A stretch of DNA of 64,000 nucleotides, from positions 14,942,001 through 15,006,000 of the forward strand of contig OZ024741.1 in the NCBI GenBank assembly GCA_964016885.1, written 5' to 3'. This stretch comes from Eledone cirrhosa (Eukaryota). Position numbers and translations under genes: made by a program. A model generated the notes under the pieces. That model was not told where the DNA came from and made no database searches. It worked only from the letters and a program-made list of their open reading frames with translations. This document shows positions 12,781 to 17,086 of this stretch, piece after piece. How positions within the stretch are numbered: position 1 is the first letter of the stretch; each line of letters begins with the position of its first letter.

Positions 12781-14071
12781 TATATATATATATTCGTGTG
12801 TGTATATTCATGTCCATATCTATATATGTGTGTATGTATGCATGTATGTATGTATGTTTGAATTGATGTGTATATGCATGTGTATATATATATATAAGTA
12901 TATAAGTATATATATATATATACACACATGTGTTAGTCTGTCTATATCTATGTGTGTCTGCACGTTTATGTTTCGGTACATATATGTATATATATATATA
13001 TATATGTATATATGTATGCATATATGTATGTATATATGAATGTATGTATGTATATATGTATATATATATACATACATATATATATATATATATATATGTA
13101 TGTATGTATATATGTATATATGTATATATATATATATATATATATATATATATATATATATATATATATATATATATATATATATATATATGTATGTATA
13201 TATGTATATATGTATATATATATATATATATATATATATATATATTTATATATATATTTATATATATGTATGCATGCCGTTTTCAATAGACATTATTCCA
13301 CTCTACTTCATCGTATTGTGTACCTTTTGCTTAATTGCACACACATCCCTGTCTACAGTATTCCTTTTATTCTAGAAAATGAACAAATATATATATATAT
13401 ATATATATATATGTGTGTGTGTGTGTGTGTGTGTGTGTGTGTGTGTGTGTGTACATATATGGGTGTGTTTGTGTGTGTGTGTGAGAGAGAGAGAGAGAGA
13501 GAGAGAGAAAGTGTGTGCAATATGTGTGTGTCTGTATGAGTTTGTGTGTGTGAGTCTATATGTGTGTGAGTCTATATGTGTGTGAGTGTGTGTGTATGTA
13601 CGTGCGTGTGTGAGGTTAATCTTATATTGTAATTCACTCCCTACTGGTCTCCGCACTTTAGACATCGGCCATGCTGGAGCCTCACCTCCATTTAGTCCAT
13701 CATACCGACACCAGTTCTTATTTTTTTCAAGTCTGCTACATTTTTCCTCCAACTGTTGGGTTACAGGTCATAAACATATATATATACATATATATATATA
13801 TTATATATATATATATTAACATAAATATATATATATATATATATATATATATGTTTATATATATATATATATATATATATATATATATATATATATATAT
13901 ATATATATATATATATATATATACATATATATATATTGGAATAAATGCTCTGAAATAGCGATATATATGTGAATATAGACATAGAATATTCGAAAATATT
14001 CTGTATGTTTATAATAAACATTTTGAAGACCTAATCGCTATAGAATAGAATACGTCACGTATTACAATTAG

Positions 14072-14160
14072 ATTCTCGATAAAAGCAAGGGAAGTAATCT
14101 ACGCGTTTCATTCTTATTAGAAATCTTCAGGACTACATATCCAGTGCTTTTATCGAGAAT
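14072..14160 (-). ncRNA. Type I hammerhead ribozyme (second minus copy at 14382-14470)
   Basis: Reverse complement of the 14770-14858 motif. Confidence 0.85.
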
Positions 14161-14769
14161 GACACAGCTAGAGACTTATAGAATACTTAGCTGTGTACAG
14201 GAACTGGTTTGAAAGAGCGGTTGCCGGTCCGGCAGAAATTAGAAATTGGAATAAATGCTCTGAAATAGCGATATATATGTGAATATAGACATAGAATATT
14301 CGAAAATATTCTGTATGTTTATAATAAACATTTTGAAGACCTAATCGCTATAGAATAGAATACGTCACGTATTACAATTAGATTCTCGATAAAAGCAAGG
14401 GAAGTAATCTACGCGTTTCATTCTTATTAGAAATCTTCAGGACTACATATCCAGTGCTTTTATCGAGAATGACACAGCTAGAGACTTATAGAATACTTAG
14501 CTGTGTACAGGAACTGGTTTGAAAGAGCGGTTGCCGGTCCGGCAGAAATTAGAAATTGGAATAAATGCTCTGAAATAGCGATATATATGTGAATATAGAC
14601 ATAGAATATTCGAAAATATTCTGTATGTTTATAATAAACATTTTTTTTCACATATATATCGCTATTTCAGAGCATTTATTCCAATTTCTAATTTCTGCCG
14701 GACCGGCAACCGCTCTTTCAAACCAGTTCCTGTACACAGCTAAGTATTCTATAAGTCTCTAGCTGTGTC

Positions 14770-14858
14770 ATTCTCGATAAAAGCACTGGATATGTAGTCC
14801 TGAAGATTTCTAATAAGAATGAAACGCGTAGATTACTTCCCTTGCTTTTATCGAGAAT
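14770..14858 (+). ncRNA. Type I hammerhead ribozyme (also 15080-15168, 15390-15478, 15700-15788, 16010-16098)
   Basis: GTAGTC-CTGAAGA-tTTCTaataAGAAt-GAAAC-GC-GTA^GATTAC; 6-bp stem I extended by a perfect 16-bp helix ATTCTCGATAAAAGCA/TGCTTTTATCGAGAAT; palindromic ACGCGT stem III; predicted cut after 14830. Confidence 0.88.
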
Positions 14859-17086
14859 CTAATTGTAATACGTGACGTATTCTATTCTATAGCGATTAGG
14901 TCTTCAAAATGTTTATTATAAACATACAGAATATTTTCGAATATTCTATGTCTATATTCACATATATATCGCTATTTCAGAGCATTTATTCCAATTTCTA
15001 ATTTCTGCCGGACCGGCAACCGCTCTTTCAAACCAGTTCCTGTACACAGCTAAGTATTCTATAAGTCTCTAGCTGTGTCATTCTCGATAAAAGCACTGGA
15101 TATGTAGTCCTGAAGATTTCTAATAAGAATGAAACGCGTAGATTACTTCCCTTGCTTTTATCGAGAATCTAATTGTAATACGTGACGTATTCTATTCTAT
15201 AGCGATTAGGTCTTCAAAATGTTTATTATAAACATACAGAATATTTTCGAATATTCTATGTCTATATTCACATATATATCGCTATTTCAGAGCATTTATT
15301 CCAATTTCTAATTTCTGCCGGACCGGCAACCGCTCTTTCAAACCAGTTCCTGTACACAGCTAAGTATTCTATAAGTCTCTAGCTGTGTCATTCTCGATAA
15401 AAGCACTGGATATGTAGTCCTGAAGATTTCTAATAAGAATGAAACGCGTAGATTACTTCCCTTGCTTTTATCGAGAATCTAATTGTAATACGTGACGTAT
15501 TCTATTCTATAGCGATTAGGTCTTCAAAATGTTTATTATAAACATACAGAATATTTTCGAATATTCTATGTCTATATTCACATATATATCGCTATTTCAG
15601 AGCATTTATTCCAATTTCTAATTTCTGCCGGACCGGCAACCGCTCTTTCAAACCAGTTCCTGTACACAGCTAAGTATTCTATAAGTCTCTAGCTGTGTCA
15701 TTCTCGATAAAAGCACTGGATATGTAGTCCTGAAGATTTCTAATAAGAATGAAACGCGTAGATTACTTCCCTTGCTTTTATCGAGAATCTAATTGTAATA
15801 CGTGACGTATTCTATTCTATAGCGATTAGGTCTTCAAAATGTTTATTATAAACATACAGAATATTTTCGAATATTCTATGTCTATATTCACATATATATC
15901 GCTATTTCAGAGCATTTATTCCAATTTCTAATTTCTGCCGGACCGGCAACCGCTCTTTCAAACCAGTTCCTGTACACAGCTAAGTATTCTATAAGTCTCT
16001 AGCTGTGTCATTCTCGATAAAAGCACTGGATATGTAGTCCTGAAGATTTCTAATAAGAATGAAACGCGTAGATTACTTCCCTTGCTTTTATCGAGAATCT
16101 AATTGTAATACGTGACGTATTCTATTCTATAGCGATTAGGTCTTCAAAATGTTTATTATAAACATACAGAATATTTTCGAATATTCTATGTCTATATTCA
16201 CATATATATATATATATATACATATATATATATATATATATATATATGTTTATATATATATATATATATATATATATTTATATATATGTATATATATTAT
16301 ATATATATATATATTAACATAAATATATATATATATATATACATATATATATATATATATATATATGTTTATATATATATATATATATATATATATATAT
16401 ATATATATATATATATATATATATATATATATATGTTTATATATATATATATATATATGTTTATATATATATATGTTTATGTATATATATATGTTTATGA
16501 CTTGTAACCCAACAGTTGGAGGAAAAATGTAGCAGACTTGAAAACGCACATATAGACTCACACACACTCACACACATATAGACTCACACGCATATAGACT
16601 CACACGCACAAACTCATACAGATACACACATATTGCACACACTTTCTCTCTCTCTCTCTCTCTCTCTCTCTCTCTCTCTCTCTCTCTCTCTCTCTCTCTC
16701 TCTCTCTCACACACAAACACACCCATATATATATATATATATATATATATATGCGTGTGTGTGTCTGTCACTCTCTATATGTATATGTTAGTGTATCTGT
16801 ATATATGTGTGTATATGTATGTGTCCTTCTCTGTATATATGTATGCGGGCATCTCTGTATATATGTGTGTGTGTGTATCTCTGTATATATGTGTGTGTGT
16901 ATCTCTGTATATATGTGTGTGTGTGTATCTCTGTATATATATGTGTGTGTGTCTATAGGTATATGTGTGTGTGTGTGTGTGGGTGCGCATAGCTGTTCAT
17001 AACATTTAATGGAATCTTAATCGCTCGTTACACTTGGGCGACTTTCCACAACACTATTTATATATTCAGGGAAATATTGCCGCTTA

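Follow-up and report, generated by a model that had tools for sequence, protein, structure and literature searches.

The window analysed here, a 64,000-nt stretch of Eledone cirrhosa DNA (contig OZ024741.1), contains an inverted array of a 310-bp repeat composed of 2.29 minus-strand and 5.04 plus-strand units, all identical at period 310. The original prediction had described about 7.3 identical units, about 2.3 of them leftward and about 5 rightward of a T8 junction, with both outer ends entering (TA)n, and the measured array agrees with it in unit number, identity, junction and target on both sides (Table 1). The exact junction of the right arm is ambiguous because the AT run of the unit merges with the target. 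The monomer has a G+C content of about 34% (base counts from the near-identical majority unit), and its circle is predicted to fold with an MFE of -67.8 kcal/mol (z -4.3 vs 60 shuffles) and 58% of bases paired.

Table 1. Features of the array and of one representative hammerhead, in coordinates of the window; unit positions are numbered from the ribozyme cleavage site.
Feature	Position	Strand	Remarks
(TA)n target, left part	13776..13934	.	borders left arm
Left arm	13935..14644	-	710 bp, 2.29 units, 100% identical at period 310
Left arm 3' end	13935	-	unit position 165; long, tailed end
Tail	13935..13960	-	unit positions 140-165; present at left end, missing at right end
Left arm inner end	14644	-	unit position 76
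Inversion junction	14645..14646	.	2 bases outside both arms, within T8 run 14641-14648
Right arm	14647..16209	+	1563 bp, 5.04 units, 100% identical at period 310; starts at unit position 127
Type I hammerhead	14770..14858	+	motif, fold, covariation; recurs each 310 bp
Hammerhead distal helix	14770-14785/14843-14858	+	16 bp
Hammerhead stem I	14794-14799/14831-14836	+	6 bp
Hammerhead core	14800-14806 and 14821-14824	+	type I
Hammerhead stem II	14808-14811/14816-14819	+	4 bp, above U.U mismatch
Hammerhead palindrome ACGCGU	14824-14829	+	stem III
Predicted cleavage site	after 14830	+	motif
One monomer	14831..15140	+	310 nt, cleavage site to cleavage site
Right arm 3' end	unit position 139	+	exact junction ambiguous over ~16201-16209
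(TA)n target, right part	16210..16492	.	borders right arm

Seven complete type I hammerheads were counted in the array, with core C3 positions at 14800, 15110, 15420, 15730 and 16040 on the plus strand and at 14440 and 14130 on the minus strand, and the proposed 6-bp stem I, 16-bp distal helix and palindromic ACGCGU were recovered in each complete unit. The 111-nt motif folds with a z score of -4.85 (0/200 shuffles equal), and a stretch with two ribozymes is predicted to adopt a double hammerhead fold in which both palindromes are paired (z -6.13, 0/100 shuffles), which lends support to the earlier suggestion that the ribozymes act as dimers. An Rfam search of the window returned no hammerhead model match at E<=1, its 46 matches all being to miRNA-type models and falling either on simple repeats or at the junction; the identification of the hammerhead rests on motif, fold and covariation and not on a library model. 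Ribozyme classes other than the hammerhead were screened by Rfam alone. Across an alignment of 19 sequences, 86% of cells were paired as compared to 34-46% in slid controls, a contrast that favours the counted structure in so far as it was derived from the same 19 related sequences. Two-sided changes were observed in 17 of 29 pairs, the core 3-8 pair being C-G in 8 sequences and U-A in 11, and conservation measures were reached by 0/500 shuffles on four of five counts; ‘further pair types’ were not above shuffles (435/500). Compensatory changes in the ribozyme are seen in older subfamilies.

Exact pattern searches, on which all genome counts are based, gave 15,741 matches to one unit motif and 1006 and 1191 element-end junctions of the two types, reversed-pattern controls giving 0; dispersed arrays had been expected and are present. 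Together, these counts indicate that the array is one of more than 1,000 very young insertions of a 310-base repeat whose RNA is predicted to cut itself, and the recent origin proposed from unit identity is supported. With one type I hammerhead per unit, a tandem unit within ~170-400 bp, G+C <45%, non-coding units and dispersed multicopy occurrence, the element is classed from its sequence as a non-LTR retrozyme, a known kind of element, as had been proposed. No ORF of at least 150 aa was found inside 20 arrays. The suggested linkage to RT+GIY-YIG ORFs was not seen in cis, the only matches to Penelope-like element (PLE) profiles belonging to separate neighbouring elements, and an autonomous PLE was rejected since the repeat is without an RT plus GIY-YIG ORF. 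A viroid-like circle replicating from RNA to RNA was also rejected, the hammerhead occurring in the sense polarity only and the fold being branched and not rod-like. Endogenous presence in other organisms found no support.

The inversion is real at the locus and is no one-off event: it represents the standard product across the family. Head-to-head arrangement was found in 68 of 75 insertions examined and tail-to-tail arrangement in none; five insertions are single-armed (L034, L041, L159, L167 and L169) and one (L154) is cut by a gap. Inversion was also seen in 10 of 12 insertions chosen by the ribozyme core alone, a set that excludes the window array and includes two that form a local duplicate (L037), and in 16 of 20 chosen for looking unpaired. 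Inversion is the rule of the family. In 61/61 complete inverted insertions, ~40 of which had been selected for paired ends, one arm ends at unit position 138-139 and the other at 165-170, leaving a tail of 26-35 nt on one end only, and homologous ends also occur in older subfamilies. In 48 of 53 insertions, both ends directly abut AT runs. The arrays had been expected to differ in phase; the outer ends are instead fixed at the two sites, and only the inner junction differs from insertion to insertion, with overlaps of 1-6 nt in 26/52 (raw count). Arms reach up to 27 units, and their lengths showed no support for coupling (Spearman 0.23, p 0.07). Either arm may be the longer one (25 vs 36 of 61 insertions), which excludes fold-back self-priming, with one arm a simple copy of the other, as the source of the inversion. 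Inverted flanks were rejected as a family feature, a flank-to-flank match being present in only 5/53 insertions.

Variants within the units provide a record of the template. Fixed-variant calls were common to both arms in 99 cases and arm-discordant in 1 (L170), and 28 haplotypes were distinguished among 63 insertions (sum of p^2 = 0.09). Fifteen of 29 fixed variants are private to a single insertion, where they may recur in, for example, 24/24 units, and some whole arrays keep a period of 311 or 308 bp; single-unit substitutions amount to 94 in 195,257 scored bases. The presence of one haplotype throughout both arms of each insertion implies a single-monomer bottleneck per insertion, as predicted by rolling-circle reverse transcription, and the earlier proposal of 310-nt monomers copied in this way is favoured by this clonality. 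In L040, both arms change haplotype in the same register (the outer two units share one type and the inner ones a second), a 5.4-kb gap being filled by further units of another haplotype with no ORF, and in L058 one variant occurs in the matching unit of both arms; a multimeric template fits these two insertions better than a monomer circle. A haplotype switch in one arm only, seen in L158, is also compatible with a multimeric template. Given this one-arm switch and the discordant site in L170, it is not strictly established that both arms derive from the same molecule. The share of A-to-G changes is 9/28 among fixed substitutions and 7/94 among those confined to a single unit (Fisher p 0.002); in L158, an A-to-G change at a UAG site sets in partway along one arm and runs the whole length of the other. 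For the fixed variants, which were polarised on the majority unit, the ratio of A-to-G to T-to-C is 9:5 (p 0.18); ADAR editing is a lead only, and G.U-tolerant selection would give a similar picture.

Insertions of this shape are known from PLEs. An inverted, 5'-truncated copy and a 30-40 bp tail at one end are typical of PLEs (PMC8557442; PMC3846280), and a PLE protein in purified form cleaves AT-rich DNA on both strands and initiates at two adjacent internal RNA sites, by which the tail is defined (PMC11167929). By analogy, the inverted copy and tail found here match the pattern of PLE insertions. A PLE family of the same genome (L083), with GIY-YIG above the cut-off and RVT_1 just below it (E 2e-6), has two fixed ends into (TA)n ~68 nt apart, one of each being arranged head-to-head in 9 loci of the family, and one further such pair lies in the window; exceptions include L159, with two long ends facing, and several loci with a single end. 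Neither blastn nor an nhmmer profile of 10 retrozyme units revealed any helper PLE carrying a homologous terminal repeat in 40 PLE loci, drawn from 10,596 GIY-YIG candidates, 150 of them scored; nhmmer gave two strong matches, which look like separate insertions, and a next best E of 0.02. The involvement of PLEs therefore rests on architecture. In L033, L127 and L154, PLE ORFs situated close to retrozymes were rejected as helpers, being separate insertions or lying beyond a gap, as were PLE fragments in L034, which have the opposite orientation. A protein search with one PLE family retrieved copies that are mostly 93-98% identical and indicated no partner.

It is suggested, with a probability of about 0.68, that the repeat is a non-LTR retrozyme, young and non-autonomous, which a PLE reverse transcriptase-GIY-YIG enzyme copies in trans. 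In the array transcript, adjacent hammerheads would pair via the palindromic stem III and release 310-nt monomers, which would be ligated into circles; a single monomer should be stable because it has no partner ribozyme in cis. Insertion would take place into (TA)n, the target ends meeting the element at unit positions 165 and 130-139 as in the observed pattern, and both nicked target strands would prime cDNA on the sense RNA at these two sites. The number of circuits that each cDNA makes of the template would vary, and the far ends of the two cDNAs may then be joined through a short overlap or a few added bases. The expected product, a head-to-head concatemer pair with a 26-35 nt tail at one end and a single haplotype, has the form seen in the genome, and the finding that the outer ends are fixed and only the inner junction varies points to PLE-type priming specifically. 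A further reading, put forward tentatively and at somewhat less than even odds, sees in the arrays a record of two-primer rolling-circle reverse transcription, with a monomeric ribozyme circle as template and a PLE enzyme, dimeric and related to telomerase, as the copying agent.

An unlikely alternative retains PLE two-site priming and replaces the circle with an uncleaved linear multimer, either RNA read through from a parent array or an RNA-templated rolling-circle product, the monomer bottleneck falling at another step or being occasional. The co-registered switch in the arms of L040 and the unit-specific variant common to those of L058 favour such a template, as does the weak, dimer-dependent type of the ribozyme, comparable to axolotl motifs, which perform better as dimers (PMC7229834). 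For the anole PLE, ribozyme cleavage is dispensable in vitro and unprocessed RNA is the chief substrate, a result that counts against a cleaved-circle template (PMC11167929). However, private variants and indels are fixed over up to 24 units in both arms, which together with the 28 haplotypes in 63 insertions means that a monomer stage must be frequent, and linear parents can only yield shorter arms. A further 41 private variants within the other arm's reach are unshared, which is weak evidence as most probably arose after insertion. Twin priming by L1 leads to 5' inversions, and mobilisation of the RNA by a LINE-type enzyme with twin priming would be in line with the lack of a PLE partner among the 40 loci; this is nevertheless improbable, as the two priming sites have fixed positions inside a unit without poly(A) or a simple-repeat 3' tail, the two-end pattern is matched by the L083 PLEs, and starting at two adjacent sites is described as a feature of PLEs and of no other elements (PMC11167929).

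Satellite-like amplification, in which insertion of a monomer or PLE terminal repeat is followed by local expansion through unequal crossover, has been proposed for vertebrate retrozymes (10.64898/2026.07.22.740005), and variants repeated 7 units apart (L051) or 5 or 21 apart (L032/33) suggest some local duplication. As the origin of the arrays it is very improbable and already largely refuted, since it fails on same-haplotype concatemers in two inverted arms and on outer ends that stay fixed while the inner junction varies, and since the single-unit substitutions remain unhomogenised. An assembly artefact, in the form of palindromic chimeric reads or a collapsed repeat, might be suspected from the flanks of the window array, which are short inverted copies of each other. 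This similarity extends over only ~300 bp and is interrupted by substitutions and one 115-bp indel, and flanks rarely match elsewhere in the family; inner junction and haplotype are locus-specific, whereas outer ends are fixed and asymmetric genome-wide. Short-read contigs of run X1, possibly from the same sample, include 9 with loose AT ends at position 139, the position-165 end not being among the matches listed (6 of 30). An artefact is considered extremely improbable.

Among known systems, the metazoan non-LTR retrozymes of coral, mussel and axolotl (Cervera and de la Pena 2020, PMC7229834) share with the Eledone cirrhosa family ~300-bp tandem units of low G+C, one type I hammerhead per unit and no coding capacity, and two axolotl motifs are alike in their short palindromic stem III and the U.U mismatch beneath stem II. 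The life cycle put forward in that paper, with the circle as template of a helper RT and PLEs as strong candidates, agrees with the model presented here, the helper being given as LINEs, PLEs or other elements. Insertion ends, inverted arms, tail, (TA)n target and per-insertion haplotypes are undescribed in the passages considered, Discussion included; circles, predicted here, were demonstrated there by experiment. Endonuclease-bearing PLEs (Poseidon PAc, PMC11167929; Adineta Penelopes, PMC3846280; Naiad/Chlamys, PMC8557442) have in common with it the head-to-head inverted 5'-truncated copy, a short tail at one end and AT-rich or microsatellite targets, and canonical PLEs carry the hammerhead upstream of the start sites, as in the 310-bp unit; here, in contrast, the unit is without an ORF, up to 27 repeats per arm replace a partial tandem, and the tail is 26-35 nt where 30-40 is usual. 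Chlamys non-autonomous derivatives such as MRC1 (PMC8557442) are likewise non-coding PLE passengers with multicopy head-to-tail insertions, but generally resemble the autonomous family at the 3' end and belong to a clade without canonical hammerheads, whereas the ribozyme is conserved here and no homologous helper was found among the 40 loci. Vertebrate retrozymes, viewed as derivatives of PLE terminal repeats, share the PLE link and co-occur with PLEs; that link is phylogenetic, the mechanism “remains to be elucidated” and tandems are ascribed to local amplification (bioRxiv 10.64898/2026.07.22.740005), whereas the ends and haplotypes reported here indicate that tandems form during insertion. 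In the titles and abstract openings covered, with subscription journals mostly outside, neither inverted, tailed retrozyme insertions nor an octopus or cephalopod retrozyme is described.

The route by which animal retrozymes return to the genome is stated as open in PMC7229834 and in 10.64898/2026.07.22.740005. Copying of RNA by a PLE-type RT from two fixed starts has been proposed for such repeats and hitherto not shown, and the structure of the copies points there. The family offers more than 1,000 nearly unmutated integration products, in which the footprint names the enzyme class, the two start sites are given to the base and tandems derive from one monomer; it also provides a minimal natural substrate for asking why PLEs produce inverted arms and tails, and the rolling-circle hypothesis becomes directly testable with a 310-nt RNA. 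If the two-primer rolling-circle reading is true, it would be the first direct genomic evidence found for the integration route of animal retrozymes, and each insertion would be a readout of one circular RNA molecule, RNA-acquired changes included, the A-to-G pattern of L158 appearing as though edited while being copied. For the genome of Eledone cirrhosa, recent insertion amounts to ~4.9 Mb (15,741 x 310 bp), or 0.16%, and read-through of the arrays may give rise to long perfect hairpins.

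The array is a real feature, and its layout is that of the original prediction: two opposed arms, uniform at their 310-bp period, meet in a short T run and enter (TA)n at both outer ends. A motif scan recovered seven complete type I hammerheads; the motif folds with a z of -4.85, and an adjacent pair folds as a double hammerhead with the ACGCGU palindromes joining the two (z -6.13). An Rfam search at E up to 1 returned no model matching the hammerhead. In the unit numbering used here, position 1 is the first base after the predicted cut (window 14831). The array is not an autonomous Penelope-like element (PLE). 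It shows each of the features given for non-LTR retrozymes in the available text of PMC7229834 that could be checked, and the retrozyme assignment also held. Beyond the (TA)n, the flanks (13490-13780 and 16468-16752) are mutual inverted copies of ~300 bp with several substitutions and a 115-bp indel, more diverged than the array itself; inverted flanks are not a family trait, any flank-to-flank match being found in just 5 of 53 insertions.

Features located in the window, with strand where assigned
Feature	Position	Strand	Description
Left arm	13935-14644	minus	2.29 units, 100% identical at period 310
Right arm	14647-16209	plus	5.04 units, 100% identical at period 310
Arm-to-arm meeting point	14641-14648		T8 run
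Terminal-repeat pair, L083 PLE family	62528-62741		head-to-head, one long and one short end
Further terminal-repeat fragments, L083 family	60350-60537; 49748-49862; 51550-51687
Hammerhead amid L083-family fragments	60526	minus	U3-A8 core
Other tandem	1736-2305		195-207 bp units, presumably SINE-like

Dispersed arrays, anticipated from the window, were found elsewhere in the genome (3.0 Gb) by pattern search. The window's ribozyme-core variant has 1,375 exact matches genome-wide, an 18-base motif common to most variants has 15,741 (control 0), and exact junction patterns located 1,006 copies of the position-165 end and 1,191 of the position-139 end (controls 0). The family is estimated at ~1,200-1,700 insertions, and the repeat makes up 0.16% of the genome. 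Only 94 substitutions confined to a single unit occur among the 195,257 bases scored, which marks the family as very young, in agreement with the very recent origin first proposed from unit identity in the array. Older sister subfamilies (eight units at 313-322 bp, one at 340 bp; ~70% identical) use two ends homologous to those of the young family, and their tail motif has 4,500 matches.

Across 19 mutually related sequences, with the structure set by the analyst, covariation is seen in the hammerhead and in the distal helix (86% of cells paired, two-sided change in 17 of 29 pairs), and the core 3-8 pair is C-G in 8 and U-A in 11. By these comparisons, the ribozyme appears to be under selection. 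Stem III varies in length with self-complementarity kept or nearly so, which fits the predicted dimeric cleavage. Another abundant element carries a near-identical stem II with a longer stem III (L033:3130-3200, L088:685, L092:6713, L100:4266 and L112:1795), possibly through module exchange. At ~12550-12800 on the minus strand lies the 3' end of a different element. Around 12640-12670 this end carries a minimal motif resembling a hammerhead, which falls below the motif-scan stem thresholds; by eye the end is similar to that of a C-rich PLE at locus L154.

The unit was also present in 20 of 24 listed public sequencing runs (17 studies, 18 organism codes), none recorded as RNA; four of the 20 were examined in detail. 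A near-identical unit occurs in runs X4-X20, from 17 other organism codes (2020-2025). Run X1 had loose AT ends at position 139 and a summed depth of 1-6 x 10^5. Runs X4 and X18 each yielded a single contig, flankless and at depth 5-10, and 1,938 Mb of raw reads from organism C contained 0 unit matches. As a repeat at 0.16% of a genome would assemble first from trace DNA, its occurrence in other organisms probably reflects diet or carry-over, with an RNA circulating independently as a less likely source.

Insertion structure was scored in 75 insertions, comprising that of the window, 12 chosen by ribozyme core only, 42 from loci chosen for their paired ends and 20 chosen as apparently unpaired, with 74 (all except the window's) from a single contig. 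Head-to-head inversion is the family's rule: 67 were minus-then-plus, none plus-then-minus, one a double inversion and seven a single alignment (one with an 18-base second arm, one adjoining an assembly gap and five single-armed). In the double inversion (L043:2143-2320), one junction (position 65 to 29) is used twice, flanking a short extra piece. In each of the 61 complete inverted insertions, one end lies at 138-139 and the other at 165-170. Among the first 80 165-ends listed, 55 face an exact 139-end head-to-head within 20 kb and none pairs with another 165-end; the sole 139-139 pair belongs to two neighbouring insertions. Inner junctions occur in every one of the ten phase bins, with 8-26 in each, and, in 52 insertions, comprised overlaps of 1-6 nt (26), blunt joins (4), 1-8 added bases (10), longer or mis-scored cases (10) and unscored cases (2). 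C131, almost always present in internal units, is absent from the short end in 34 of 63, placing the true junction between 130 and 139 and giving a tail of 26-35 nt. Simple fold-back copying as the source of inversion was ruled out, since either arm may be longer (25 versus 36).

This footprint matches that of PLEs, whose insertions are described in the accessible parts of PMC8557442 and PMC3846280 as carrying an inverted 5'-truncated copy, mainly head-to-head, with a 30-40 bp tail on one end. According to the available text of PMC11167929, a purified PLE cleaves both strands of AT-rich DNA, initiates at a pair of neighbouring sites within the RNA, which set the tail, needed no ribozyme cleavage in vitro, and is predicted to be dimeric. 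The genome holds 10,596 GIY-YIG candidates, of which 150 were scored; five tested ORFs match both GIY-YIG and RVT_1, the latter above cut-off in two. In the autonomous L083 PLE family, (TA)n is likewise joined at two fixed ends of the element, which lie ~68 nt apart. These ends are paired head-to-head in nine loci examined and once in the window, with exceptions (one locus with two long ends, several with a single end only). Among 40 PLE loci compared, no terminal repeat with homology to the unit was found, and for this reason the helper PLE is one that we only infer. The L089/L095 PLE family, whose profile match to the unit falls below significance, may be considered a candidate helper; its end into (TA)n shares its final five bases with the retrozyme long end, with faint similarity upstream. 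Co-occurrence and phylogeny had already led to a proposed PLE-retrozyme link in the text available of 10.64898/2026.07.22.740005, where tandems are put down to local amplification. For PLE ribozymes, the ideas of dimers and of a rolling circle appear in the accessible part of a review (PMC6765202). A literature search of titles and abstract openings found no account of inverted, tailed retrozyme insertions or of per-insertion clonal haplotypes in retrozymes. We consider that PLE-type two-site priming produced the insertions, with a probability of about 0.88.

The sequence content of the insertions bears on the template. Fixed variants run through all units of both arms at 99 site calls, against one arm-discordant site (L170); 15 of the 29 fixed variants occur in one insertion only, and some whole arrays keep a 311 or 308 bp period throughout. 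With 28 haplotypes among 63 insertions, a random pair of arms would agree only ~9% of the time. For a new variant to occupy 14-24 units across two inverted arms, it must have passed through one monomer, as rolling-circle copying predicts. Tandems arising by local unequal crossover would not be expected to show one-monomer variants filling both inverted arms, although some local duplication is present (L051, L032/33). A linear multimer copied with the same two-site priming would accommodate the haplotype change in both arms, in the same register, at L040, the unit-specific variant common to both arms at L058 and the change in one arm only at L158, all three counting against a strict circle; to explain these loci, a multimeric template or a switch of template must be involved at least some of the time. 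The fixation of private variants through many units of both arms argues against a linear multimer, and we regard it as an unlikely usual template. At L158:276-4294, an A-to-G change at unit position 276 (UAG context) occupies the inner two of six units of one arm and all seven of the other, which may reflect an edit made while the RNA was copied, a switch of template or a template that was linear. Retrozyme transcripts would be cleaved and circularised before being copied in trans by a PLE enzyme, and it is probable, less firmly than for the priming itself, that PLE-type two-site priming acted with the monomer circle as its usual template.
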